The notes under the pieces: generated by a model | Seen by the model: only the letters and a program-made list of their open reading frames with translations | What the model was told of the DNA's origin: nothing | Database searches by the model: none | Made by a program: the position numbers and the translations under genes | Part shown: piece by piece, positions 1,003 through 51,012 of the stretch | How the letters are laid out: every line of letters begins with the position of its first letter | Numbering within the stretch: position 1 is the first letter of the stretch | From: Parcubacteria group bacterium GW2011_GWA1_40_21 | GTDB lineage: Bacteria; Patescibacteriota; Minisyncoccia; Phycocordibacterales; GWA1-40-21 | Direction: 5' to 3' | Length of the DNA stretch: 64,000 bases | NCBI GenBank assembly: GCA_000996205.1 | Contig: LBYO01000005.1 | Span: 1,728-65,727, forward strand

Positions 1003-1548
1003 TTGGCTAAAATAACTATTTTTGGACTCGCGGGGACAGGCACGACTTCGGTTGGGAAAATGTTGGCAAGCAATTTAGGTCACACTTTTTTGTCTAGCGG
1101 GAATTTGTTTAGAGAAAAATCGGTTAAACTTGGAATTGAAGTTTCCAAGCTTGAAAAAATCTGCTTAACACATTCAAAATATGATCTTGAGCTGGACAAA
1201 TATATAGAAAAGTTTGGCAAAGAAAAAAATAACTTTGTCGTGGAAAGCCGTCTAGCTTATCACTTCATTCCAGATTCAATAAAGATAAAGTTTGTCTGCG
1301 ATTATGCCACCAGGATTCAGAGAGTGGCCAGAAGGCAGAATATACCCACTTCGGTCGTTTCTGAAGAAACAAATTTCAGGGAGCAGGCCGCGAAGAGAAG
1401 ATACCGTAAACTTTACGGCGTCAAAAAATTGGCGCCAGATAAGCAGTTTCATTTAATCATTGACACATCGCGCAGATCCGCGGAAGAAACCGCGGCAATT
1501 ATTGTCTCAAAATTTAACCTGTTTAAACTCAAAGGAGGCAGACAGTGA
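1003..1548 (+). CDS. cmk: archaeal-type cytidylate (CMP) kinase, P-loop
   Basis: TTG start with upstream GGAG; Walker A GLAGTGTTSVGK; overall collinear with archaeal CMP kinases (FRE..., ESRLA, KRRY..Y motifs). Confidence 0.7.
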   Translation: MAKITIFGLAGTGTTSVGKMLASNLGHTFLSSGNLFREKSVKLGIEVSKLEKICLTHSKYDLELDKYIEKFGKEKNNFVVESRLAYHFIPDSIKIKFVCDYATRIQRVARRQNIPTSVVSEETNFREQAAKRRYRKLYGVKKLAPDKQFHLIIDTSRRSAEETAAIIVSKFNLFKLKGGRQ

Positions 1549-1877
1549 AAGTGATAATAGATAAAAATGGCGATGTTGTTTACCGGCAAGGATTAAAGAC
1601 TCTGATAGTCAACATGAATACGAAAGTTGATTATGAAATCTTTAAAGCGGCGGCGAGTTTTTCTCAGACGATTCATTATTTCCTTTCTTCAAGGGGGATT
1701 ATGAATTGCGCGACTATCACGCTGTTCGCGGCGACGCTGGCCTTTTTTTCTTGCGTTTTCGTCCGTGAATTGAAGACATATCTGATCACAATTGCCAAAG
1801 TTTCAGGCTCCGTTGCGGGAATATTCATAGCCTTGCTCATATATCGTTCTCGTCTCTGGAAATGGAAGATTCTTTAA
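1545..1877 (+). CDS. hypothetical membrane protein
   Basis: GTG/ATG-start ORF overlapping the cmk stop; hydrophobic C-terminal half. Confidence 0.35.
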   Translation: MKVIIDKNGDVVYRQGLKTLIVNMNTKVDYEIFKAAASFSQTIHYFLSSRGIMNCATITLFAATLAFFSCVFVRELKTYLITIAKVSGSVAGIFIALLIYRSRLWKWKIL

Positions 1878-1911
1878 AAAGATATTCCGATTATTTTAAG
1901 ACCCCGCTCTT

Positions 1912-1940
1912 TCTCGACAAAAGAACGGGGTTTTTCACTT
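1912..1940 (+). terminator. rho-independent terminator
   Basis: ccccgctctt...aagaacgggg stem followed by ttttt. Confidence 0.6.
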
Positions 1941-2063
1941 CCTCTCAATGAACGGGTATCATTATATGCTTTGTATTACGAAACTTGATAATGCCGTTGA
2001 CTTAATTATATAATGTGATATACATAAGAAACAAATTGATTATTATTTATTAATCGCACAAAA

Positions 2064-3095
2064 ATGCCTATAATTAAATTCAAGCCAAAACAAGCGTCAA
2101 AGAAGCTTCTGTCGGCTCTTTCCGACAGGTCAAAAGAAGTTATGGAAAGCCGGTACGGATTGGGAAAGAACGACGAAAGGATGACGCTTGAAGCGATAGG
2201 ACAGTATTATGGAATTACGAGGGAGCGGGTTCGCCAAATAGAAAACCATTCAATCGCCGCGATAAGAAAATCCAAATATTACACTGAAGAAAATTCCGCC
2301 TTTGACGAACTGGAATCACTCATCCGCTCTTTGGGGGGAATTATTGTGGAACAGGACCTTCTTGACCATATTTCCAAAGATACGACTATTCAGAACCATA
2401 TCAATTTTCTTTTGGTGATCGGGCACCCTTTCAAGAAAATCAAAGAAGATGAAGATTTTAAGCACAGGTGGTATGTGAACGAAGAGCTTTCAGAGAAGGT
2501 TCACGGATCGCTTAAAAAAGTCTATGAAAATCTGAAAGACGAAGATTTGATATCGGAAACGGAAATGATCAAAGCGTTTATGGAACACATCAAAGACTTG
2601 GCGGAAAATTTAAAAAATGAAGAGATGGTAAGGAGATGGCTCTCAATTTCCAAGCGAGTAGGCAAGAATCCTTTGGGTGAATGGGGAAAGACTGCTTCTC
2701 CCAACATCAGTGCGAAAGGGATGCGCGATTACGCCTTCTTGGTAATAAGAAAACACGGCTCGCCAATTCATTTTAAAGAAGTCGCCAGAATAATCAGCGA
2801 AGTTTTCAAGAAAAAAGCCCATATCGCCACTTGCCACAACGAACTGATTAAAGACCCTAGGTTCGTGCTTGTCGGAAGAGGTCTTTACGCTCTTTCGGAA
2901 TGGGGATATATGAGCGGCGTGGTTAAAGATGTGATAAGAAAAATTTTGGAAAAACACGGTCCTTTGAGCAAAGAAGAAATAATAGATAAGGTAATGAAAG
3001 AAAGGTATGTAAAAGAAAATACCATCACGGTCAATCTCCAAAATCCGAAATATTTCAAGAAAAACAAAGAAGGGAAATATACAGTTGCGAAATAG
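2064..3095 (+). CDS. sigma-70 region-4 HTH protein with C-terminal HARE-HTH-like winged helix
   Basis: LSDRSKEVMESRYGL...TLEAIGQYYGITRERVRQIENHSIAAIRK is a textbook sigma-70 region 4; C-terminus ...FVLVGRGLYALSEWG resembles HARE-HTH. Confidence 0.5.
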   Translation: MPIIKFKPKQASKKLLSALSDRSKEVMESRYGLGKNDERMTLEAIGQYYGITRERVRQIENHSIAAIRKSKYYTEENSAFDELESLIRSLGGIIVEQDLLDHISKDTTIQNHINFLLVIGHPFKKIKEDEDFKHRWYVNEELSEKVHGSLKKVYENLKDEDLISETEMIKAFMEHIKDLAENLKNEEMVRRWLSISKRVGKNPLGEWGKTASPNISAKGMRDYAFLVIRKHGSPIHFKEVARIISEVFKKKAHIATCHNELIKDPRFVLVGRGLYALSEWGYMSGVVKDVIRKILEKHGPLSKEEIIDKVMKERYVKENTITVNLQNPKYFKKNKEGKYTVAK

Positions 3096-3099
3096 ACCG

Positions 3100-3250
3100 A
3101 ATTAGGTTCTAGTGATTAGGTTTTAGGGACTAGGTCGGGAGCAGATTCCAGTTTTTAGTGAATAGTGGTTAGGTTTTGGAATTAGACATTAGAAATTAAT
3201 ACAAACTTCTATTCTCTATAACCTAAAACCTAGCCACTAAAACCTCCCGT
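3100..3250. repeat. cluster of short direct/inverted 'aggtttt(a)gg' / 'cctaaaacct' repeats
   Basis: ttaggttttaggg, ttaggttttgg, acctaaaacctag, actaaaacctcc within 150 bp downstream of the sigma-like gene. Confidence 0.4.
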
Positions 3251-3322
3251 TAAAGATTGATAGTTCACGTTTGCGGTGGTATTATTATCGCATAATTTTA
3301 GAACCGCCTTACGCATTTATTT

Positions 3323-4564
3323 ATGCTAAATAATTTCTTGTCATTCATTTCTAATAATCTGCCGGATTTGGAAAGAATAGTTTTGGATACTTTAATCTCG
3401 TATTCGCCGATATGGCTTCCAATACTGCTTATAATTATCGGTTGGAAATTATGGGTGAGGTATATTAGAGCGCTTTTTTGGAGCAAGCAGAAGCGAATAC
3501 TTTTGGAAATCAAGTTGCCGAAAGAGATTACCAAATCGCCACTCGCAATGGAAACATTTCTAATAGGATTGCATCAGACCGGCCGCGAAGGGACATGGTA
3601 TGCCAAATTCTGGGAAGGGAAGACGAGGCCGTGGTTTTCTTTGGAAATGGTTTCCACAGAAGGAGTCGTGCGATTTTTCATCTGGACTGAAGCGTCTTTT
3701 AAAAACATAATTGAAGCGCAACTTTACGCTCAATATCCGACGGTGGAAATTTACGAAGCGCCGGATTATACCGAAGGAGTATTTTTTGACAAAGATAAAA
3801 TAGGGCTTATGGGCACAAACTTTGAATTCAGTAAATCTAGCGCTTACCCAATAAAAACTTATGTTGATTATGGGTTGGATAAAGCAGACACGAAGGAGGA
3901 ATACAAGACTGACCCGATTACGCCGATAATTGAATTTTTGGGTTCAATGGGGAAAGGCGAACAAGCTTGGATTCAAATCTTGATAAGAGCCCATAAGAAA
4001 GAGCAGATTAAGAAAGGGACATGGTTTGAAAAGGCAGATACTTGGCAGGACGAAGCCAAAGAGGAGATTGAGAAAATCAGGAAAGAAGCTACTCCAGAAA
4101 CTGAATCTGACTACCCCGCCTTTCCTAATCCGACCAAAGGTCAGATTGAGAAGATTGCCGCCATTGAAAAAAATGTTTCCAAGCTCGGATTTGATTGCGG
4201 CATTCGTATTATTTATCTTGCCGAGAAAAATAAATTTAATAAGGGTATGAGTGCCGCTATGACTGGCATTACCAGACAGTTTCATTCCAATAATTTAAAC
4301 AGTTTTAAATCCTACGGAATAACATTTTTTGATTATCCGTGGCAGGATTACAAAAGTATAAGGGTTAACAAGAAAAAAAAGAAAATGCTCAATGCTTACA
4401 AATTACGCTCCTATTTTTATCCGCCCTATCAGAAAAAATGGTTTGTGATAAATACGGAAGGGCTCGCTTCAATTTTCCACTTGCCCGGAAGTGTCGCGCA
4501 GACACCATCATTCGCGAGAATTGTTTCCAAGAAAGCCGAACCTCCGTCAAATTTGCCTATTTAG
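3323..4564 (+). CDS. hypothetical membrane-anchored protein
   Basis: N-terminal TM helix (PIWLPILLIIIGWKLWV) then large soluble domain; no confident family assignment. Confidence 0.4.
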   Translation: MLNNFLSFISNNLPDLERIVLDTLISYSPIWLPILLIIIGWKLWVRYIRALFWSKQKRILLEIKLPKEITKSPLAMETFLIGLHQTGREGTWYAKFWEGKTRPWFSLEMVSTEGVVRFFIWTEASFKNIIEAQLYAQYPTVEIYEAPDYTEGVFFDKDKIGLMGTNFEFSKSSAYPIKTYVDYGLDKADTKEEYKTDPITPIIEFLGSMGKGEQAWIQILIRAHKKEQIKKGTWFEKADTWQDEAKEEIEKIRKEATPETESDYPAFPNPTKGQIEKIAAIEKNVSKLGFDCGIRIIYLAEKNKFNKGMSAAMTGITRQFHSNNLNSFKSYGITFFDYPWQDYKSIRVNKKKKKMLNAYKLRSYFYPPYQKKWFVINTEGLASIFHLPGSVAQTPSFARIVSKKAEPPSNLPI

Positions 4565-4599
4565 TTTATGACATATCTCTAGTTGTCACTTCCTGATTT

Positions 4600-4665
4600 T
4601 TATGTCATTCCCGCGCATGCGGGAATCCAGAACCTCGGTGGTTTAGACCGGATCCCTACCTTTGT
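4600..4665. repeat. 'gtcattccc-N8-gggaatccag' palindromic repeat element (copy A)
   Basis: gtcattcccgcgcatgcgggaatccag; the same terminal motif recurs at 21321, 26805 and 37505. Confidence 0.6.
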
Positions 4666-4688
4666 AAGTCCTATAATTTTATTTATCA

Positions 4689-5687
4689 ATGTTTTACATA
4701 TTACATAAAGTGGCGGAAAAATTGTCATTCAAACCGAGCAAAAAGGTTTTGACTATTGCCGCCGCGACATTTTTTTTGGCGGCAGGATTTTTTTATTATT
4801 TTTTTGCAAGTCCTCCGGCTGACTTTCCCGTAAATTCTATATATTCAATTCCAGAAAAAAGCAATCTTTCAGAAATAGCGAATGAGGCTGAAAAAAATCA
4901 TATAATAAAATCAGCGCTGGCGTTAAAAGTTTTGACTATCTTATTTTCAGGAAATAAAGGTGTAATCTCCGGAGACTATGTCTTGGACAGGAAGGAGAAT
5001 GTGTTTGAAATTGCTCAAAGATTCACTGATGGAGATTTTAGGCTGTCAGCCGTAAAGATTACAGTTCCTGAAGGTTTTAGTGTTTATGATATAGCCGAAT
5101 TGTTATCCAAGAAAGATGATTTGCGGAATTTTAATAAAGAAGATTTTATCAGTCTCGCGAAAGACAAAGAAGGATATTTGTATCCCGACACATATTTTTT
5201 CCTGCCCAATATTAAAGCCAAGCAGATAATAGAAATTATGATGGATAATTTTAGAGACAAAGTTGAATTGATTCAGAAAGACGCCAAGAAATTCAATAAA
5301 ACCTTTCAAGAAGTCTTGATAATGGCTTCCATTCTTGAGAAAGAAGTCAGGACTGCGGAAGACAGGAGGATTGTCGCTGGAATTCTTTGGAAGAGGATAA
5401 AGATAGGAATGCCTCTTCAAGTTGACGCTGTTTTTCCTTACATAACGCAGAAAAAAGACAGAGCGATAGCTAAAGATGATTTAAAAATAAATTCACCCTA
5501 CAACACATATCTCAACAAAGGCTTGCCGCCCGGGCCGATTTCCAACCCAAGCTTGGACGCGATTGAGTCGGCCATTAATCCGAAAGAAACTAAATATCTT
5601 TTTTATATTTCAGATAAAAAGGGAATTACGCACTTCGCAAGCACGCTTGAGGAACACAATAAGAACATTGCGAGATATTTGAGATGA
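4689..5687 (+). CDS. mltG: endolytic murein transglycosylase MltG (YceG family)
   Basis: N-terminal TM, then YceG-like core; C-terminal GLPPGPISNPS...LFYIS...HFASTLEEHNKN matches MltG. Confidence 0.85.
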   Translation: MFYILHKVAEKLSFKPSKKVLTIAAATFFLAAGFFYYFFASPPADFPVNSIYSIPEKSNLSEIANEAEKNHIIKSALALKVLTILFSGNKGVISGDYVLDRKENVFEIAQRFTDGDFRLSAVKITVPEGFSVYDIAELLSKKDDLRNFNKEDFISLAKDKEGYLYPDTYFFLPNIKAKQIIEIMMDNFRDKVELIQKDAKKFNKTFQEVLIMASILEKEVRTAEDRRIVAGILWKRIKIGMPLQVDAVFPYITQKKDRAIAKDDLKINSPYNTYLNKGLPPGPISNPSLDAIESAINPKETKYLFYISDKKGITHFASTLEEHNKNIARYLR

Positions 5688-32852: not shown

Positions 32853-32918
32853 TTTTATCACCGCGACTTTTCGTTCCGTTCTTTATTTCTGTCTCTGCTT
32901 TATAAACTTTATGAACTT

Positions 32919-33061
32919 CTTTGAATTACGAAACCCTCATTTTCCGTCTTTGCGAGCCGGTACTCCGGCGTGGCAATCCAGAGTTTACCGCGCGTAATAA
33001 TGGATTGCTTCGCTTCGCTCGCAAAGACAATGCGGTAATGTGATAGTTTCGTAATTCAAAG
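32919..33061. repeat. MITE family A, complete copy (~143 bp)
   Basis: TIRs ctttgaattacgaaac / gtttcgtaattcaaag; internal ttgcgagc...gctcgcaaag inverted repeat. Confidence 0.8.
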
Positions 33062-33140
33062 TGAACTTGATAACTTTCAACTTATTTGCTTGACTAATCA
33101 TATGGCAATTTGCTAACATAGTGTTTGCTGTTTTAAAGTA

Positions 33141-41443: not shown

Positions 41444-41544
41444 TGGAGGAGTTGAAGAAGGAGGGAGTGTAACCCGCCTTCGCTGGAAAATTTTGAAAGC
41501 CTCCGCCGACACCAAGGCTTTTGCGGGCAAGTCGGCGAGACGAA

Positions 41545-41587
41545 GAAAACCGTGAAAATGAGCACTTTTTAAGCAGTTTTTCACGGT
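41545..41587 (+). terminator. terminator-like hairpin after dnaJ
   Basis: gaaaaccgtgaaaa ... ttttcacggtt. Confidence 0.4.
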
Positions 41588-41591
41588 TATG

Positions 41592-41619
41592 TTGACAAAA
41601 CAGTGAAAATTACTATACT
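41592..41619 (+). promoter_or_regulatory. sigma-70-like promoter TTGACA-N16-TATACT about 8 nt before the Fic start codon (probably leaderless mRNA)
   Basis: consensus -35, near-consensus -10; the ATG at 41628 lies ~8 nt after the -10 with no Shine-Dalgarno. Confidence 0.5.
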
Positions 41620-41627
41620 TAAAATAT

Positions 41628-42518
41628 ATGGCAAAGACACTCGCGGCATTCAACAAAATTAATACATTAAGGGAAAGATACTATAAAGCATCTACCGGCA
41701 AGGATGCTCTTATTAAGCTCATTAGCGAAGCGGAAGTTGCCGAACAGGTATACAACTCAAATGCTATTGAAAATAGCACGCTTACTCTCGAAGAGACCGA
41801 AAAAATACTTCTCCAAATTGACTTGGATAGGTTTATTAGCGAGCGGGAAATATTTGAAGCGAAGAATTTAGCGCGCGTAACATCGTATATAGATAAACGA
41901 GCAAAAGAACAAGAACTGAACCTTGATGTAATTTTATCACTTCATAAAATGCTTATTTCAAGTATTCGTGATGATATTGCCGGTAGATTTAGAAAGACCG
42001 GGGAATATGTGCGGGTTGGAAGTCATATTGCTCCAAAATCGGAAGAAGTAATACCGCGACTGGAGAAAATTCTTGCGGAGTATAACGCAAGCAGTCACGA
42101 AAACATTATAAAACGTATTGCTAAACTGCATCTTGCATTTGAGCACACACATCCTTTCTGTGACGGAAATGGCCGTATTGGGCGCGCACTGAATAATTAT
42201 TTACTTATACGAGATGGATATGTGCCAATAAATATAAAATTCATTGATAGAGAAAAGTATTACGACGCATTTAAGGAATTTGATGAGAAAGACAAAACTG
42301 AAATTATGGAAGAGATTGTCGCAAAGTCGCTTACAAATAGTTATCACAAAAGATTAGCGTATTTAGAAGGCAAGAAAATCATGACACTTGTCGATTATGC
42401 GAAAGAAAATAAGTTATCACATTCTAATTTGATAAATAAGGCGACACGCCAAACCATTGAAGCCTTCCTGGAAAAAAATGTTTGGAAAATTGGCATCGAC
42501 AATCACAAAGAAAAATAA
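41628..42518 (+). CDS. Fic/Doc (Fido) family protein
   Basis: canonical Fic motif HPFCDGNGRIGR. Confidence 0.9.
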   Translation: MAKTLAAFNKINTLRERYYKASTGKDALIKLISEAEVAEQVYNSNAIENSTLTLEETEKILLQIDLDRFISEREIFEAKNLARVTSYIDKRAKEQELNLDVILSLHKMLISSIRDDIAGRFRKTGEYVRVGSHIAPKSEEVIPRLEKILAEYNASSHENIIKRIAKLHLAFEHTHPFCDGNGRIGRALNNYLLIRDGYVPINIKFIDREKYYDAFKEFDEKDKTEIMEEIVAKSLTNSYHKRLAYLEGKKIMTLVDYAKENKLSHSNLINKATRQTIEAFLEKNVWKIGIDNHKEK

Positions 42519-42520
42519 TT

Positions 42521-43660
42521 ATGGCAAACAGTAATCTTACAAACGCAAAAAGAGCAAAGAATGACGAGTTTTATACTCAGTTCGGCGATATTCAAAAAGA
42601 GATTGAAGCGTATTTGGAATACAACCCCAATGTATTTCGTGGCAAGGTTGTGTATTGCAATTGCGACGATCCGTTTGAGAGTAATTTTTTTCGCTATTTT
42701 GTGCTCAATTTCAACAAACTTGGATTGAAACAGCTTATCACCACGAGCTATAAGCCCTCGCCTGTCGCCAACACGCAACTGGGATTGTTTGGCGATGATA
42801 AAACTCTCACAAAATCAAAAAGCCTGCCTGCCGGTAGGCAGGGCCGTCCTAAGGTAAACGCCAACAAATTTATTGTGAGCGATGTGCGCGACATAGACGG
42901 CGACGGCGAGTTCAACTTAAGGGATGTCGCCAAGCAGTTAAGGGCAAACAAACACAACGAATGGACGCCACTTGAAGGCGACGGCGACTTCCGTAGCGAT
43001 GAATGTATAAATTTGCTAAAACAATTCGACATCGTCGTAACAAATCCGCCGTTCAGTCTATTCCGCGAATATGTTAAGCAACTTTTTGATAATAACAAGA
43101 AGTTTGTGATTATCGGTAATATGAACGCTATTACTTATAAAGAAATATTTCCCTTGATAAAGGAAAATAAAATGTGGCTTGGTAATGGCTTTCACGCTGG
43201 CAATGCTTATTTTTCCACCCCTCTAGCTAAAGAATACGGGGAGGGAGTTTATATGCCAGAAACCGGTTTAGTAAAATTTAGAAATATTTGTTGGTTTACT
43301 AACTTAGACCATGGGCGCCGTCATCAACCATTACCGCTTATGACAATGAAAGAAAATTTGAAATACAGCAAACACAAAGAAATTAAGGGCAAAAAGTCGT
43401 ATGATAAATATGACAATTACGATGCCATAGAAGTTTCATTTACTGATGCAATTCCAAGTGATTATGATGGTGTAATGGGCGTGCCGATTAGTTTTTTGGA
43501 TAAATACAATCCTGATCAGTTTGAGATTATTGGAATGGCAGAAGATAACGGCAAGGGTTTTTCGGGTGGAATTTGGGACGGCAAAAATCCGCATTGTGTC
43601 ATAAATGGAGAGAATAAATTTAAGAGAATTTTTATTAAGCATAAGAAAGTTGGGGAATAA
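42521..43660 (+). CDS. N6-adenine DNA methyltransferase, M.EcoRI-like
   Basis: N-terminal KNDEFYTQFGDIQKEIEAYL and VVYCNCDDPFESNFFRYF recall the M.EcoRI N-terminus; catalytic FDIVVTNPPFS (NPPF). Confidence 0.6.
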   Translation: MANSNLTNAKRAKNDEFYTQFGDIQKEIEAYLEYNPNVFRGKVVYCNCDDPFESNFFRYFVLNFNKLGLKQLITTSYKPSPVANTQLGLFGDDKTLTKSKSLPAGRQGRPKVNANKFIVSDVRDIDGDGEFNLRDVAKQLRANKHNEWTPLEGDGDFRSDECINLLKQFDIVVTNPPFSLFREYVKQLFDNNKKFVIIGNMNAITYKEIFPLIKENKMWLGNGFHAGNAYFSTPLAKEYGEGVYMPETGLVKFRNICWFTNLDHGRRHQPLPLMTMKENLKYSKHKEIKGKKSYDKYDNYDAIEVSFTDAIPSDYDGVMGVPISFLDKYNPDQFEIIGMAEDNGKGFSGGIWDGKNPHCVINGENKFKRIFIKHKKVGE

Positions 43661-43670
43661 AAATGAATTT

Positions 43671-44390
43671 ATGCAAAAAGAAATTAAAAAATATATTAAA
43701 TATATTGAAAAAAACTTATTATATATAAGTTTAATAATTTTATTTATCCTACTTTTTTCATATGTATTTTCTAGTTGTTTTAGATTTGTTCTATATTTCT
43801 TAAATATTGAACCCAATTTTCTAGTTGTTTTTATTACTGCGATTACTTTAATATTTTCGGCTATAGAGAATAAAAAAGAAAGAAAATATAATTTTAATTT
43901 AAATTTAAAAAACTCAGTAGAAGAAAAAGCAGCTATTGTTATAGGAAAATTATTTATAATGATGAATGATTCTCAAAATTATTTACAGACAATAAAGGAT
44001 ATAAAAAATGCAATAGAAAAAAATAAAAAGTTTGTTGATATGAATAATGTTTTATCCTTAGATCTTCTTAAAAAAGACAGAGAACTTGTTGGATCATATA
44101 TAGTAATTTATTTTTCTCAGTATATTCAAAATGATTGGAATTTAATGGTGGATAAAATTAATAAAATTGGAACAAATTGTTCAATGGCAATGACTAATTA
44201 TAACGAAAATTATAATCTTATTAATACGGCTGGTTTTGAAAATGAAACATTGTCTAATATAGATAATACGATAAAAGAATCAGAAATTTTAAATGAAGAG
44301 ATTTATGAATTAACAGAAAAAATGAAAAATACATTATTATCTATTATTGTAGAAAATAATAATAAAATGAAAGAAAAATATATAAATTAA
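43671..44390 (+). CDS. hypothetical membrane protein encoded by an extremely AT-rich segment
   Basis: ORF 43605..44390 trimmed to its second Met; two TM helices, then a Lys/Asn/Ile-rich domain; local GC far below the window average. Confidence 0.35.
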   Translation: MQKEIKKYIKYIEKNLLYISLIILFILLFSYVFSSCFRFVLYFLNIEPNFLVVFITAITLIFSAIENKKERKYNFNLNLKNSVEEKAAIVIGKLFIMMNDSQNYLQTIKDIKNAIEKNKKFVDMNNVLSLDLLKKDRELVGSYIVIYFSQYIQNDWNLMVDKINKIGTNCSMAMTNYNENYNLINTAGFENETLSNIDNTIKESEILNEEIYELTEKMKNTLLSIIVENNNKMKEKYIN

Positions 44391-44396
44391 AATAGT

Positions 44397-45401
44397 ATGA
44401 CAAATATCAATAATTCCGGTGAGATAATTATTTATGAAGGCGCGGATGGGGCGACTAGGATTGAGGTGCGTGTTGAGGGTGAGACCGTTTGGCTTACTAT
44501 TGATCAAATATCGAAACTTTTCAATAAGAGCCGTTCTACGGTTAACGAGCATATTTTGAATATTTATGCCGAAAAAGAGCTAAATGAAGCTGAGTCTGTG
44601 AGAAAAATCGGAAATTCCGATTTTTCTACCAAACCGACCAATTTTTATAATTTGGATGTTATTATTTCCGTCGGTTATCGCGTGAAATCCATACAGGGCA
44701 CAAAGTTCCGTCAATGGGCGACTGCCAGAATCAGTGAATACCTTATTCAAGGATTCACTATGAATGATGAATTTTTGAAAAACAATGGTGGCGGCTTATA
44801 TTGGAAGAAACTCTTGTCTCGCATTCGTGATATTCGATCTAGCGAAAAGATGTTGTATCGGCAAGTTTTAGATCTCTATGCCACAAGCGCGGATTATAAT
44901 CCAAAATCTTTACATTCAATTAAGTTTTTCAAAATTGTGCAAAACAAATTGCACTATGCTGCGCATAAAGAAACGGCAGCAGAAGTTATTTACAATCGCG
45001 CTAATAGCGATAAAGAATTTATGGGTTTGACGGTTTTTGAGGGAGATTTACCTGTGTTAGAAGAAGTGAGAATTGCTAAAAATTATTTGTCCGCGCGAGA
45101 GCTAGAAAAATTAAACAGGCTTGTCTCGGCATATTTTGAGTTGGCAGAATTGCGCGCTATGGATCAGCAAATAATGCATATGGCAGATCATATTGCATCT
45201 TTAGATAAATTACTTTTTGATTACGGCGAAGGAGTTTTAACTGACGCTGGAAAAGTAACACATAAAAAAGCCATAGAAAAAGCAGAAAATGAGTATAAAA
45301 AATTTCAAGCTAAAACACTCTCTCCTGTTGAAAAATCATATTTGGAAAATATTAAGTTATTAGAGAAAAAAGTAGAGAAAAAAATAAAAGATAAAAATTA
45401 A
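44397..45401 (+). CDS. RhuM-family (virulence protein RhuM / Fic-DOC-associated) protein
   Basis: [16 protein letters not shown]...[22 protein letters not shown]...[23 protein letters not shown] matches the RhuM family. Confidence 0.8.
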
Positions 45402-45415
45402 TTAAAAATAAAATT

Positions 45416-46585
45416 ATGAAAACAATTTTAAAAACCGGCATCACTGTCAAAGATATTTGTGAAGGGTTCGTCTATAACGAACTGGAGGGCAAGGGGCTAT
45501 TTGGTTTGTCTGGCAAGCTCACCATTCAGCCGGAGTATCAGCGCAACTATATCTATGCCTCCGACGGCGGGAAAAGAGAGATGGCTGTTATTGAATCAAT
45601 ACTCAAAGGTTACCCAATAGGCTTGATCTATTTTAATAAGGTTTCTGAAAACAATCTGGAGGTCTTGGACGGGCAACAACGGATCACCAGTGTTGGACGT
45701 TTTGTGACTGACAAATTTGCTATCAAAGACGAAAACGGCATGGAGCAATATTTTGGCGGTATAGCAAAAGACAAGCAAGTCAAGATTTTGGAAACGAAAC
45801 TGCTCATTTATGAATGCGAAGGCACAGAAAGCCAGATAAAAGAGTGGTTTAGGACTATCAATATAGCTGGAGTTCCGCTCGTCCCACAGGAATTGTTAAA
45901 TGCGATCTATTCCGGACCATTTGTTACTCTAGGTAAAGAGGAGTTCAGCAACAGCCAAAATGCCAATATTCAAAAATGGAGCGCGTACATAAAGGGCAGC
46001 GCAAACCGACAGGCATTTTTTGAGAGAGCTTTAGACTGGGCGAGTAAGGGAGATATTGATGATTACATGAGTCTTCATCGCAACGACAAAAATATCAATG
46101 AGTTAAAAAATTATTTCAACAGTGTGATTGATTGGATCTCTAGTGTATTTACCGGTGTAGAAAGCGAGATGTGCGGACTTGAGTGGGGACGACTGTATGC
46201 GGAGTATCACAAGAAAGCTTATGATCCTGCTAAAGTGTCAGATGAGGTTAGTAAACTGTATGGCGATCCATATATCAAAAACCGCAAAGGTATCTTTGAA
46301 TTTATTCTAGGTGGTTCTGTTGATACAAGATTACTTGAGGTTAGATTTTTTGATGAAGCAACTAAAAAAGCGGTTTATACAACACAAACCGCTAAAGCAG
46401 AGAAAAAAGGTGAATCAAACTGTCCGCATTGTGCCATTGGACATGATGCCAACAAAGAAAAAATTTGGAGTCTAGGCGAAATGGATGCCGACCATGTAAC
46501 GGCTTGGAGCAAGGGCGGCACAACCTCGGCTAAAAATTGTGAGATGTTGTGCAAGACGCACAACCGAGCAAAAGGAAATCGGTAA
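45416..46585 (+). CDS. GmrSD-like type IV restriction enzyme (DUF262 ParB-like NTPase/nickase domain + C-terminal HNH nuclease)
   Basis: DUF262 signature DGQQR; C-terminal CPHC...DADHV...N..LC..HN HNH motif. Confidence 0.75.
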
Positions 46586-46610
46586 TAGAAAAAATAATCG
46601 TGGAAAATCT

Positions 46611-46991
46611 ATGAAATTGAATAAAAAACAGAGGGATATGCTGTGGGGAGATAGCGGACCATATTCTCAAGCGAATTTAATACGTCAGGTCCGCATTCTT
46701 GACGACAGGATAAGCCGGATATTCTTGGTGGTGGAAGTTGATATAAATCCCACGACTTTTGAAATGGTGCAAAAATTCAGGGATAATGACAAGTTTAAAA
46801 ATAACATTATTATCCAACAGTTATTGGATACCGCTGAATATCGCGGTCCTTCGTTCGGCTATGTTTCCGTGGCTTTTGAAAGGGAATATAAAGACGAGAT
46901 GGTGATGTGGAGCGCCGAAGCCGCGTTAAAATATTCGCAGGAGAATATAATTAAAATGCATAAGTTTGTTATGAATAAAATTCTTCAATAG
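46611..46991 (+). CDS. hypothetical protein
   Basis: ORF 46539..46991 trimmed to MKLNKKQRDM; no family. Confidence 0.35.
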   Translation: MKLNKKQRDMLWGDSGPYSQANLIRQVRILDDRISRIFLVVEVDINPTTFEMVQKFRDNDKFKNNIIIQQLLDTAEYRGPSFGYVSVAFEREYKDEMVMWSAEAALKYSQENIIKMHKFVMNKILQ

Positions 46992-47007
46992 ATAAGTTCA
47001 AGAAAAA

Positions 47008-47391
47008 ATGAAAACAATTTTAGTGGATGCGATAAATACTTTCGTGATTAAAGGCGAGGGGATATTTGAAGATATGCGTGATTTGCTTGAGAAGTATCCC
47101 AACAAGAAAATAATTCTTACCAATGCCGACGATGAACAAATGCAGAAGAATGGTTTGGATAAAATGCCCTATGAAATTTTTACTCTTAAGCATAATCCGG
47201 AAAAAACTGATAAAGAGTATTATGAAAAAATGCTGGAGCATTTTGGTTTAAACAAAGATGATGTTTTGTATTTTGAACATAACGAAGATGCCGTAAAAAG
47301 CGCCCAGTTTGTCGGCATAAAGACATATCATTACGACAAAGACAAAAAAGATTTAAATGAGTTGAAGAAATTTCTGGCTGATAATCTTTAA
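47008..47391 (+). CDS. short HAD-like hydrolase domain protein (possibly a fragment)
   Basis: C-terminal VLYFEHNEDAVKSAQFVGIKTYHYD resembles HAD motif III/IV; too short for a full HAD enzyme. Confidence 0.35.
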   Translation: MKTILVDAINTFVIKGEGIFEDMRDLLEKYPNKKIILTNADDEQMQKNGLDKMPYEIFTLKHNPEKTDKEYYEKMLEHFGLNKDDVLYFEHNEDAVKSAQFVGIKTYHYDKDKKDLNELKKFLADNL

Positions 47392-47629
47392 AATTTTGGA
47401 AAAGTTGATAAGTGGCCAGAAGAGATTAGTTGTGTATTTAAACATATCTCTAATTCGCGCGAATGGGCGAATAGTTGTATTTTAACCGCACGCCTATTTT
47501 GGCGAGATAATTGAAAAATAAATGGTGAACTTTGCTTTGACTAAATATTGCCGATGTACTAGTCTTTGTAAAGAATTTGTAATAATTTTTTCATTATAAT
47601 TGTCAACAATTTTAAGAAGGAGGTGAAAA

Positions 47630-47980
47630 ATGCCTAAAAAACTAACTAGGTTGACTAGAAGCAATTGGTGGTCTGAGCTTGGTAATTCAGGATTGTCCGA
47701 TGATCTTATCACATTACTTCGTTCAATCGTTTCTGATTATTTAAACGGGGCGATGGGCGTGAGGGCTCCAGATGCAAATTTTATAACAAACGAATTGCTG
47801 AAGAATCACCTAATGGAAGGTTTTATGGTAGATAATTGTTTTTTTGATGTTGTTGTGTTTGCACCCAAATCTAATAAGGGTAAAAGTAAAGTTAAGGGTG
47901 GAATGCGCCGCCATCGGAGCTTCTATAAGATCGTAGAAAGACACCCAGGGTACAATACGCTGACATTAAAGGATCTCTGA
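47630..47980 (+). CDS. hypothetical protein with strong Shine-Dalgarno
   Basis: aaggaggtg 8 nt upstream of the ATG; basic C-terminus. Confidence 0.4.
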   Translation: MPKKLTRLTRSNWWSELGNSGLSDDLITLLRSIVSDYLNGAMGVRAPDANFITNELLKNHLMEGFMVDNCFFDVVVFAPKSNKGKSKVKGGMRRHRSFYKIVERHPGYNTLTLKDL

Positions 47981-47994
47981 TCATGAAAGGATAA

Positions 47995-48038
47995 ATGCCG
48001 CACCAATTGAATTGAATATTGGTGCGGCATTTCTTATT
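47995..48038 (+). terminator. rho-independent terminator
   Basis: 13-bp perfect stem atgccgcaccaat/attggtgcggcat, followed by ttcttatt. Confidence 0.7.
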
Positions 48039-48044
48039 CAGTCA

Positions 48045-48245
48045 CTTTGAATTACGAAACCTTCGTTTTCCGTCATTGCGAGCCGGTACTCCGGCGTGGC
48101 AATCCAGAGTTTACCGCGCGCAATAATGGATTGCTTCGCTCCGCTCGCCCCTCCCCAGTTTTAAGTTTTGGAAATATCCAGAATCTAAAACTGGGGAGGG
48201 GCTCGCAAAGACAATGCGGCAATATGATAGTTTCGTAATTCAAAG
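48045..48245. repeat. MITE family A copy carrying a nested family-C hairpin insertion (48147..48200)
   Basis: same TIRs and internal sequence as 32919..33061, but interrupted at ...ccgctcgc|cccctccccagtttt...aaaactggggaggg|gctcgcaaag with duplicated gctcgc. Confidence 0.8.
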
Positions 48246-48353
48246 TCAGTCATTAAAATTTGATAACTGATTGCATCATGTTTAATATTAAAAACAAAAG
48301 CCACCCTTTAAAGATGGCTTTATAGGCACGGTAATTTTCTTCTTTCAAGAAGA

Positions 48354-48887
48354 TTAGGGAGAATAATAGGAAATATTATTTTCAATATTTCCTATTTTCT
48401 GATCAATAAACTCACGAGTGGCTTCATCCATTGAAAATAATGAGATGTGTTTGTATATAACCAAAGATTTCTCATAATTTCCAGTCTCATAATAGATATT
48501 GCCCAACAAGACGAGGAATCTAATGTAATTTACGGAATTCATATCTCGTATAGCCGACTGCAAACCTGAGAAAGCCATTTTTTCAGCAGTGAAAAATAAT
48601 TTAATTTCGTAAAAACAGTAAGTTAAATTTAAATGCGCCTCATCAGAATGCCACGAATGCAACGATTTGATATAACAAATTATGGCATTTTCATAATCAT
48701 GCTTGTTCTGCAAGATTTGTCCCATTTTAAATTCTTTTTCCGCTGTTAAAAATATACCCAAAGCCTCTTCGGTTGCGGATTTTATCGGATTGAATTTCGG
48801 AACTATGGCAAAAAGATTATGAGGAATAATAAGAAAAATCAAAACTATAAAAATAAGCCCACAAACAAAACTTTTTAAGTTTTTCAC
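48354..48887 (-). CDS. secreted TPR-like repeat protein
   Basis: signal peptide; repeats YENAIICYIKSLH / GNYEKSLVIYKH. Confidence 0.4.
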   Translation of the reverse strand: MKNLKSFVCGLIFIVLIFLIIPHNLFAIVPKFNPIKSATEEALGIFLTAEKEFKMGQILQNKHDYENAIICYIKSLHSWHSDEAHLNLTYCFYEIKLFFTAEKMAFSGLQSAIRDMNSVNYIRFLVLLGNIYYETGNYEKSLVIYKHISLFSMDEATREFIDQKIGNIENNISYYSP

Positions 48888-49063
48888 GGTCTCTATCCTT
48901 TATTAAAATGTCAAAAGATCTAAAATTTATTATTTGATGATAGGATATTTAATGCAAAATATCAATAGAGCGACCCAGATTCAAGTTCGCAGAGCAGGAA
49001 TTTCTCCCTCGCCTCTAAATTTTTTCAGTCAAAAAATTTAGGACTGGGCACAGGCTCGTAAAA

Positions 49064-49293
49064 TTTTCTGCTGAAAATTTTATACTCCGCCCTTCGAATC
49101 CTGCCCGTCCCGATGTTCATCGGGACTCTGGGCGGACAATTCCGCTTCGCTGCATTGTCCGCCCAGCAGTAATTTCTCGCCTACAGCGCGTGATTTTCTT
49201 GTTTCGCCGACTCAACATAGAAAATCCTTCGAATCCTGACGAGAGCCAAGCAGTTGGCTCTCTCTGAGCGGACAATTCCGCTTCGCTGCATTG
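49064..49293. repeat. tRNA-Lys-associated modular repeat region (two tandem units)
   Basis: two copies of gcggacaattccgcttcgctgcattgtccgcccagcag (38 bp; includes the tRNA 3' acceptor strand), two ccttcgaatcctg T-arm-like fragments, and a ttttctgctgaaaa hairpin. Confidence 0.7.
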
Positions 49294-49366
49294 TCCGCCC
49301 AGCAGGATTCGAACCTGCGACCAATCGCTTAAGAGGCGACTGCTCTACCAACTGAGCTATAGGCGG
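49294..49366 (-). tRNA. tRNA-Lys (anticodon CTT)
   Basis: manual fold of the minus strand: acceptor ccgccta/tgggcgg, D-arm gctcagttggtagagc, anticodon loop ctCTTaa, T-arm gcaggttcgaatcctgc; no encoded CCA. Confidence 0.8.
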
Positions 49367-50436: not shown

Positions 50437-50523
50437 TGGTGCCTGAGGTGGGAATCGAACCCACACGAGCTTTCGCCCATAACATTTTAAGTGTTACGTG
50501 TATACCAGTTTCACCACTCAGGC
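50437..50523 (-). tRNA. tRNA-Leu (anticodon TAA), class II with long variable arm, CCA encoded
   Basis: minus-strand fold: anticodon stem-loop taaca-cTTAAaa-tgtta, long variable arm gggcgaaagctcgtg, T-arm gggttcgattccc, terminal cacca. Confidence 0.8.
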
Positions 50524-51012
50524 TTTGTTTTTTAACATATTTCTTCCCCTATGTGTCGGTTTTAAACTATGGCAATTCGGACATAATATTCTTAAATTTT
50601 CCAATCTATTATCATGCCTATCGCCGTTTATGTGATCAAGTTCTAATGGAAGATACCCTTCTTTGTTTCTTGTGGACCAACCGCATTCTTCACAAAATTG
50701 TTTTTTTAAATTTTCACTAAATAATCTTTTTTTGAGCTTAAAACTTTGATAAGAAGAATCTTTCTTAAGAATAAACTCTAGAGGAGTAATTGGTTTGCCT
50801 ATGCCCCTCAAGCCCTTGTTCCAAGCTTTTCCTTTGAAATGAGAAATATTAAATTTATATTCTTTAATATATTTTTTAATTTGCTCATAATTTCCACCCG
50901 CCGCTACTAATCCTATCTTTTTTAAGACTTGTCTATAACTGGTTGAATCTTTAACAGCGACTTTTAATTGAGATATTTCCCACGATCTTTTCCTTCTGTT
51001 AATTTTCATCAA
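50518..51012 (-). CDS. stand-alone HNH endonuclease
   Basis: CEECGW ... LELDHINGDRHDNRLENLRILCPNCHS classic HNH/zinc-finger motif. Confidence 0.8.
   Translation of the reverse strand: MMKINRRKRSWEISQLKVAVKDSTSYRQVLKKIGLVAAGGNYEQIKKYIKEYKFNISHFKGKAWNKGLRGIGKPITPLEFILKKDSSYQSFKLKKRLFSENLKKQFCEECGWSTRNKEGYLPLELDHINGDRHDNRLENLRILCPNCHSLKPTHRGRNMLKNKA

Follow-up and report, generated by a model that had tools for sequence, protein, structure and literature searches.

A putative mobile restriction-modification cassette with embedded cargo genes downstream of dnaJ in a groundwater Parcubacteria genome

The genes downstream of dnaJ

Downstream of dnaJ in a 64-kb stretch of a groundwater Parcubacteria (candidate phyla radiation, CPR) genome, referred to here as the window, lies a block of five genes in the order Fic, EcoRI-family methyltransferase (M), open reading frame (ORF) X, RhuM and DUF262-HNH nuclease (R), with intergenic gaps of 2-14 nt (Table 1). 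The nuclease sequence matches a Parcubacteria bacterium GW2011_GWA1_40_21 protein at 100% identity and is also found on Rifle groundwater contigs. An earlier note on this DNA had described the block as an accessory, defence-like segment made up of a Fic protein, an orphan M.EcoRI-like methyltransferase, an AT-rich ORF, a RhuM-family protein and a type IV modification-dependent nuclease. The ORF list, Pfam and PADLOC recover all five ORFs together with their motifs, and the PADLOC profiles MTase_II, REase_II, PDC-S04/SoFic and PDC-S05 are matched among them. The orphan and type IV assignments fared differently: comparison with relatives points to M and R being the halves of one widespread, mobile restriction-modification (R-M) cassette.

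Table 1. Position of the block genes, their motifs and surrounding features in the window.
Feature	Position	Strand	Description
Imperfect hairpin	41543..41593		3′ of dnaJ; 16-nt arms, 88% complementary (I18)
Sigma-70-like promoter (putative)	41592..41619	+	TTGACA, 16 nt, TATACT; 11/12; 9 nt before Fic ATG
Fic	41628..42518	+	Pfam Fic E = 2e-20
Fic inhibitory-type motif	41757..41774		SNAIEN, aa 44-49 (N-terminal)
Fic catalytic motif	42150..42185		HPFCDGNGRIGR, aa 175-186
EcoRI-family N6-adenine methyltransferase (M)	42521..43660	+	PF13651 E = 2.5e-126, full length
NPPF motif of M	43043..43054		aa 175-178
Variable module of M	43181..43294	+	aa 221-258; class 0; putative target-recognition element
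AT-rich ORF X	43671..44390	+	239 aa; GC 0.19
RhuM-family protein	44397..45401	+	PF13310 E = 5.5e-95
ParB/DUF262 + helical domain + zinc-HNH nuclease (R)	45416..46585	+	389 aa; PF03235, PF01844
DGQQR motif of R	45668..45682		aa 85-89
ORF p126	46611..46991	+	126 aa; no family match
MITE, full copy	32917..33063		second full copy
MITE, copy near the block	48034..48256		additional internal hairpin 48147-48202
44-nt direct repeat	49126..49169 / 49262..49305		98% identical, 136 nt apart
tRNA-Lys(CTT)	49293..49366
164-aa HNH/HNH_3 protein	50518..51012	-	beside tRNA-Leu and tRNA-Cys

The promoter-like site ahead of Fic is the top sigma-70-like match of the region (a consensus match only) and probably serves as the operon promoter. 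No terminator-like site occurs on the + strand before 47453-47472, and the Fic stop codon lies 2 nt ahead of the methyltransferase ATG. The five genes are thus likely to form one transcript.

Class II, auto-inhibited AMPylase-type Fic enzymes carry the catalytic motif HxFx(D/E)GNGRxxR together with an N-terminal (S/T)xxxE(G/N) inhibitory motif. The Fic protein of the window has both HPFCDGNGRIGR and SNAIEN, and judged by these motifs would be a class II enzyme. Its identity is confirmed by the catalytic motif and Pfam, it matches the PADLOC profiles PDC-S04 (4.3e-32) and SoFic (1e-25), and its nearest solved structure is FICD. RhuM likewise bears out its predicted family, with a full-length match to PDC-S05 (E = 6.8e-141, aa 6-328) besides PF13310. 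M matches PADLOC MTase_II (1.2e-104) in addition to the EcoRI methylase family and carries the expected NPPF motif; a sequence search of solved structures returned no match for either M or RhuM.

A methyltransferase-nuclease pair with a variable module and a cargo slot

The nuclease combines an N-terminal GmrSD_N domain (PF03235, E = 5.6e-20, aa 36-165), containing LDGQQR at aa 84-89, with a C-terminal PF01844 HNH domain (aa 354-389) of the zinc type, in which the pattern CPHC...DH...N...C..HN begins with CPHC at nt 46421 and has its DH at aa 359-360. No Pfam match to DUF1524 was obtained at E <= 0.01. Since its C-terminal domain is PF01844 HNH rather than DUF1524, R is not a member of GmrSD, and its constant pairing with a methyltransferase makes modification dependence unlikely; of the predicted DUF262(DGQQR)-HNH type IV enzyme, therefore, the DGQQR and HNH elements stand and the GmrSD-like type IV assignment does not. 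The best full-length profile was the REBASE-derived REase_II (PDLC03418; E = 1.9e-81, aa 5-388, model positions 4-371 of 372). A structural model built from 79 diverse relatives (AlphaFold2; predicted local distance difference score 94.4, predicted template modelling score 0.84) had no whole-chain match in the PDB. At the level of domains it showed weak similarity to BrxU (E = 0.018), to the CTP-binding domains of ParB, Noc and PadC, and to HNH nickases, and a sequence search of solved structures gave one chance-level match (E = 0.97).

The nuclease superfamily comprises 425 clusters at E <= 1e-30. Over the 79 diverse relatives, residues D85, G86, R89, H360, C336, Q42, R43, E159, W240, R310 and F312 are invariant, and Q87, Q88, C339, D359, N374 and C379 are at least 90% conserved. 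Therefore, both the nucleoside triphosphate (NTP)-binding pocket and the nuclease site are under selection. The conservation of DGQQR hints against NTP-free cleavage with Mg2+ only.

Close relatives of R are found far beyond its own lineage. The top 120 clusters are at least 89% identical and come from many CPR lineages. Among species-representative genomes there are at least 589 relatives, the best 80 of which (80-92% identity) belong to Patescibacteria, Omnitrophota, Chloroflexota, Proteobacteria, Bacteroidota, Bacilli, Elusimicrobiota and one Pacearchaeota metagenome-assembled genome. Of the 83 non-redundant genome loci, ~75 have a co-directional EcoRI-family methyltransferase gene upstream of R, and most of the others have no upstream DNA in the sequence. 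The same M-then-R pair is present in 28 of the 30 IMG/VR viral contigs that were informative. It is also carried by plasmids (9-kb Moraxella osloensis and 9-kb Pediococcus plasmids, E. faecium megaplasmids and actinobacterial plasmids) with nucleases 55-68% identical to that of the window; M. osloensis pSKB0120-6 is among the carriers. A single nucleotide separates the M stop from the R start (TAA-T-ATG), or the two genes share 4 nt (ATGA), in about 50 loci. No conserved extra component, such as a C protein or specificity subunit, was found beside the cassette. As no other flanking gene is conserved, the mobile unit is the two-gene M-R cassette. This pairing contradicts the view of the methyltransferase as an orphan lacking a cognate endonuclease, whilst its EcoRI-type family and NPPF motif stand. 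R can also be found without an intact M beside it: in one locus (L014) RhuM and an intact R adjoin housekeeping genes in the absence of M, and on a Microbacterium plasmid (plasmid B) M is truncated by IS256 whilst the R ORF is intact. These cases suggest that R is probably harmless without M.

We compared 94 aligned M-R pairs for covariation. In 94% of pairwise comparisons R shows higher conservation than the M it is paired with, mean identities being 0.76 and 0.59, respectively. M is a mosaic, in which a conserved core (~0.75-0.8 identical to that of the window) is accompanied by an indel-rich stretch at aa ~95-125, a variable tail and a module of ~38 aa (aa 221-258) bracketed by WLG and WFTNLDHG. 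At least 10 discrete classes of this module can be told apart, that of the window being class 0, with identities of 0.81-0.83 within and 0.22-0.24 between classes. The largest within-minus-between difference per 20-aa window was ~0.6 in the module, 0.18 in the rest of M and 0.07 in the nuclease. Moreover, class explained a median of 0.84 of column entropy in the module (maximum 1.0), 0.37 in the rest of M (maximum 0.79) and 0.27 in the nuclease (maximum 0.47). Nucleases that are 91-92% identical to each other, that of the window included, partner modules that are just 13-29% identical. Given that no nuclease residues co-vary, specificity would probably reside in M, on the same principle as in type I and type III systems.

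One of the classes links the module to a known enzyme. The M.EcoRI reference sequence is 99.7% identical to an E. coli plasmid protein that adjoins an annotated R.EcoRI. Class 1 (17 members, including those of E. faecium and Pediococcus plasmids such as pBN83-1 and the P. pentosaceus XY62 plasmid CP146864) is 61-73% identical in its module to M.EcoRI residues 187-224, against 37-47% over whole proteins. A Leuconostoc methyltransferase that partners an EcoRI-family endonuclease is 74% identical to M.EcoRI in the module and 65% overall, and the remaining classes are 11-21% identical in the module, class 0 at 21%. The module stops 9 aa short of the His corresponding to M.EcoRI H235, a residue whose mutation changes DNA intercalation and sequence discrimination (PMC2396439). 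The simplest reading of this pattern is that the module would be a recognition element and that its classes would correspond to different target sequences, the conserved nuclease having no counterpart to it. The two cases of R without an intact M agree with this reading, as does a possible M-DUF262-HNH fusion (P0231).

On one viral contig (L190, 3636-5989) the nuclease is preceded by two EcoRI-family methyltransferase genes in tandem, an arrangement shared with systems whose targets are asymmetric.

The junction between M and R is also a site of insertion. In the window the two genes are split by 1.75 kb containing X and RhuM, and altogether 24 loci carry inserts of 611-3073 nt between M and R, all co-directional. 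RhuM is the commonest cargo (8 loci including the window) and always immediately precedes R. Next in frequency come a 200-aa MUG113/T5orf172-like protein (5 occurrences), Bro-N (4), and Fic_N-Fic, DUF2130 and an OLD-type AAA_15/TOPRIM protein (2 each); HEPN_AbiU2-like, AntA, PIN_8 and Schlafen/AlbA_2 proteins, an m5C methyltransferase with a GHKL ATPase, and a Dam-type methyltransferase occur once each. A Shedu SduA_C gene lies ahead of R in locus L064. Cargo begins exactly where the R start codon stands in cassettes without an insert (...CATAAGAAAAAATAA-T-ATG). Seven loci (L027, L016, L019, L048, L013, L029 and L068) carry an in-register duplication of the junction, one copy on either side of the cargo. 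It spans 48 nt in L027 (1243-1291 and 2243-2291), 24 nt in L016 and 23 nt in L019, lengths above those of every shuffle, and takes in as much as 40 nt from the start of the nuclease gene. This arrangement suggests that cargo is exchanged by recombination at the conserved junction. X and RhuM in the window are better described as cargo inside an R-M operon than as independent neighbours. RhuM- and Fic/DOC-type genes have been proposed as toxins inside R-M operons, mostly type I loci (Anantharaman et al. 2013, PMC3710099), and the Campylobacter rlo genes are likewise embedded in type I R-M loci.

X has the low GC content that had been predicted (0.19 against 0.394 for the window). It matches no Pfam, PADLOC, NCBIfam or PHROG family and has no relatives on viral contigs. 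Among 5.8 billion clusters we found 19 relatives (46-100% identity, 199-261 aa), all with two N-terminal hydrophobic helices, from which a membrane location may be inferred, and conserved C-terminal motifs. In each of the six independent contexts analysed X lies directly 3′ of an EcoRI-family methyltransferase gene or fragment (in L220 the contig end truncates this upstream ORF, which lay outside the profile scan), and in five of the six it is succeeded by a 367-368-aa DUF262-HNH protein, 35-38% identical to the window nuclease in L210 and L214. The GC content of X is 0.20-0.23 in L210, L212 and L214, against 0.32-0.33 for the adjoining methyltransferase gene. These recurrent contexts show that X is a real gene and the dedicated third gene of some cassettes.

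Relation to known systems and alternative readings

Taken together, we consider it probable that the whole block is a horizontally acquired five-gene defence operon, whose core is the mobile M-R cassette, with X and RhuM as cargo in the junction and Fic in front. Once the operon is transcribed from the promoter-like site, M, an adenine methyltransferase by family, would methylate adenine in a motif set by its class 0 module and so mark the host DNA. R would cut unmethylated incoming DNA with its HNH domain, having no sequence specificity of its own and being guided by an M-R complex or by reading the mark, and its ParB-like NTP-binding domain may act as the switch. RhuM, Fic and X would probably add toxic or abortive layers, as their context and the literature suggest. 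More tentatively, and at rather less than an even chance, cassettes of an EcoRI-family methyltransferase and a DUF262-HNH protein, at present classed as type II or as hypothetical DUF262 proteins, may represent an unrecognised R-M class. In it an R devoid of specificity would be programmed by the plug-in module of M, a type III principle carried out by wholly different parts, and the junction would act as a standard docking slot for the exchange of accessory toxin and defence genes (RhuM, Fic, OLD, PIN, HEPN and X) between phyla.

The cassette shares features with several known systems. As in EcoRI R-M, M is full-length in PF13651 and the class 1 module resembles that of M.EcoRI, but its partner is a ParB/DUF262 and HNH protein rather than the PD-(D/E)XK enzyme R.EcoRI, and M precedes R in a coupled arrangement whereas EcoRI-type plasmids have R then M (cf. 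L216 and L217). A two-gene operon in the order mod then res, a swappable recognition region in M and a conserved NTP-binding R without covariation recall type III Mod/Res systems, as does the Res-like harmlessness without Mod that L014 and L176 suggest. Unlike Res, however, R has neither a superfamily 2 helicase nor a PD-(D/E)XK domain, and M is of the EcoRI family and not a beta-class N6_N4 enzyme. The cassette would at most work like type III, rather than belong to it. With GmrSD, BrxU and SspE it shares an N-terminal DUF262 with DGQQR and a weak fold likeness to BrxU and ParB CTPase domains, and it differs from them in having a zinc HNH (PF01844) instead of DUF1524, in being shorter (389 aa) and in its pairing with a methyltransferase. 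Type I R-M loci with embedded RhuM, Fic/DOC and PrrC/RloC (PMC3710099) similarly hold putative toxins and ABC-ATPase genes inside the operon, but here the unit is a two-gene cassette with the cargo exactly at the M stop and R start. Lastly, aa 33-245 of the nuclease match the PADLOC model for NsnA of Menshen (NsnABC; 7.7e-26). This match is partial, an HNH fusion takes the place of the N-terminal sensor domains, and nine ORFs scanned between 41628 and 48887 gave no match to NsnB or NsnC. The Menshen paper speculates that ParB-DUF262 proteins may target non-modified DNA next to methylases.

Among the alternatives, a classical type IIP system would have R alone recognise one fixed sequence that every M methylates, with the module varying for another reason such as evasion of phage inhibitors. 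The very high conservation of the nuclease fits a single specificity, the separate and adjacent R and M genes have full-length PADLOC matches to REase_II and MTase_II, and the pair occurs on small plasmids in the manner of type II addiction modules. However, discrete classes (0.82 identity within, 0.23 between) amid conserved motifs are what recognition-domain swapping usually looks like, one class bears a specific likeness to the corresponding stretch of M.EcoRI, and the NTP-binding DGQQR is invariant. Moreover, an intact R without an intact adjacent M, as in L014 and on the Microbacterium plasmid, would be lethal if R were of type IIP. No nuclease segment or column tracks module class, an indirect observation that assumes the module to set specificity. 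Overall, we think a type IIP system unlikely. The model of the earlier note, in which an orphan regulatory or anti-restriction methyltransferase stands beside an independent GmrSD-like type IV nuclease that cuts modified phage DNA, appears extremely unlikely to us. Coupled adjacency of M and R is near universal over phyla, viruses and plasmids, the C-terminal domain is HNH and not DUF1524, and the m5C and Dam-type methyltransferases in some slots would be a hazard for a broad modification-dependent nuclease, despite the N-terminal match to GmrSD_N, the presence of BrxU among the nearest solved folds and the McrA-like label given by JGI to some homologues.

An Ssp-like mode, in which the DUF262 domain of R reads N6-methyladenine (m6A) on host DNA, much as SspE reads phosphorothioate, sets the state of the NTPase and nuclease and nicks unmarked DNA non-specifically without binding M, is in our view distinctly unlikely. 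Context-independent m6A reading is unsupported here, and the tight M/R coupling together with one M-R fusion fits a complex better. SspE sets a precedent for a modification module with a DUF262 nuclease (PMC9646914), but carries DUF1524 rather than HNH; the invariance of the nuclease over M classes and of its NTP-binding motif would suit this mode. The cassette could also be mainly an addiction module or mobile element on which the embedded genes hitch-hike with little anti-phage benefit to this host. Its nuclease identities of 80-92% over unrelated phyla imply rapid horizontal spread, it is found on small plasmids and viral contigs, and no signature of it was detected in the host genome. We nevertheless judge this very unlikely, in view of a cargo strongly skewed to defence and toxin families and of other R-M systems at the same site in relatives; selfishness and defence can, moreover, coexist.

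Several points weigh against the defence operon programmed by M that we favour. Control of R specificity by M is predicted from sequence comparison, and a recognition role is assigned to the module by analogy, from its similarity to M.EcoRI and its position. It could instead be a surface that diversifies under selection of some other kind. The PADLOC type II label for the nuclease is that of enzymes which normally hold their own specificity. Class 1 host loci show no depletion of GAATTC, a test weakened by recent transfer. A 688-aa metagenomic cluster representative (P0231) joins EcoRI_methylase, GmrSD_N and HNH in one polypeptide, and could be a genuine fusion of the two proteins or an artefact of a frameshift where the genes lie 1 nt apart. 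In the window itself the junction duplication is not significant, co-transcription is predicted from the consensus promoter match and tight gene spacing, and RhuM and Fic are candidate defence genes only.

In the open-access literature, REBASE lying outside the search, we found no published account of an EcoRI-methylase/DUF262-HNH system or its junction slot. Nor did that literature yield descriptions of a ParB/DUF262-HNH restriction subunit, of module classes without nuclease covariation, or of the X family. Given that PADLOC files both halves under type II R-M, the kind of system is already known. The nuclease family is very widespread, from CPR to Proteobacteria, Bacilli, an archaeon, plasmids and phages, yet it is annotated just as 'DUF262' or 'HNH', and labelling this methyltransferase as an orphan and its nuclease as type IV is an annotation error corrected here. 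If M does program R, the cassette would be a compact two-protein restriction system that can be retargeted by a swap of ~38 residues, and ParB-like NTP-binding domains would gain a new role in immunity. The junction slot would likewise offer R-M operons a simple route to collect and spread accessory defence genes.

The dnaJ-downstream site in relatives and other features of the window

A scan for DnaJ relatives led to the closest related genomes, four of which (L094, L095, L097 and L098) are compared at this site. All four part from the window directly past the GTGTAA stop of dnaJ (41443). In L094 (DnaJ 91% identical) dnaK and dnaJ are followed after ~0.65 kb by HAD, p116, TPR, a response regulator, p79 and HNH164, and in L095 (85% identical) dnaJ is followed after ~0.5 kb by HAD; Fic, M, X, RhuM, R and p126 are all missing from the site in both. 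This divergence together with the empty sites defines the island as 41444 to ~46600-47007. The further relatives hold other genes there. In L097 (DnaJ 85%; 1373-5132) these are a 289-aa ORF, a 551-aa fusion on the opposite strand, a Vsr-like ORF, a 245-aa ORF and p126, followed by HAD, the 551-aa protein joining a LexA-like helix-turn-helix/S24 peptidase to an m5C methyltransferase. L098 (DnaJ 81%; 1900-5452) has a large N6A methyltransferase resembling Eco57I alongside a zinc-ribbon ORF; domains in both loci were called by eye. The site downstream of dnaJ thus appears to be a hotspot repeatedly occupied by R-M systems.

The empty sites and the other R-M systems uphold the prediction that the block is accessory and defence-like. 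Synteny from dnaJ to tRNA-Lys, proposed as a check, is not conserved across the block and is conserved from HAD onward, so that HAD, p116, TPR and tRNA-Lys form the backbone. Of the bounds suggested in the earlier note, the hairpin holds as the left edge of the island, since it sits in sequence unlike any relative right after the dnaJ stop, whereas the miniature inverted-repeat transposable element (MITE) and tRNA-Lys do not mark the right one, the island ending before HAD. Strain variants agree with these bounds: in one (L005) the contig diverges exactly past the nuclease stop, and another (L003) lacks 47484-48983 of the window, including p116, the MITE and TPR.

ORF p126 had no match in family-profile searches. 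A copy of 95% identity lies beside the different island of L097, the gene is gone from both empty-site relatives, and p126 seems to vary independently of the island as another gene of this hotspot, outside the M-R cassette. The first codons of the nuclease (45411-45430) and HAD (47003-47022) share ~20 nt, AAAxxATGAAAACAATTTTA, at 90% identity, and HAD in the empty-site relatives likewise begins with ATGAAAACAATTTT. This could be microhomology at the insertion or coincidence.

The inverted-repeat element at 48034-48256, with a MITE match at 48043-48247, is one copy of a multi-copy element. Its terminal inverted repeats, CACTTTGAATTACGAAAC, have 8 terminus matches in the window against 0.14 expected, including solo termini near 1967, 6278, 26581 and 58478. 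With ~8 termini scattered over the window, the MITE was ruled out as an island boundary and is unrelated to the island.

The 44-nt direct repeat covers the last 13 nt of tRNA-Lys and a hairpin. It has no copy near dnaJ or the island, and may be the remnant of an old integration site. Rfam returned tRNA-Lys alone on 41-50 kb. We ruled out tRNA-Lys as an att site or boundary, as the repeat lacks a copy on the dnaJ side and L094 keeps HAD to tRNA-Lys without the island. Moreover, there was no match to an integrase among the nine ORFs between 41628 and 48887, and the island is not flanked by a tRNA 3′ end and direct repeat in the manner of a tRNA-targeted integrative island.

Several four-base palindromes are scarce in the window, with observed/expected ratios of 0.15 for ACGT (14 sites in 64 kb), 0.23 for TCGA, 0.40 for GGCC, 0.46 for CATG and 0.59 for GATC. 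Such scarcity points to prolonged exposure to several four-cutter R-M systems and is not attributable to this cassette. As a route to the target motif, palindrome avoidance was uninformative, the carrier-versus-control and class-specific tests being weak (ACGT p = 9e-4, uncorrected).

Beyond tRNA-Lys, the 164-aa HNH/HNH_3 protein is 98% conserved in L094 and may be a free-standing homing-type endonuclease.

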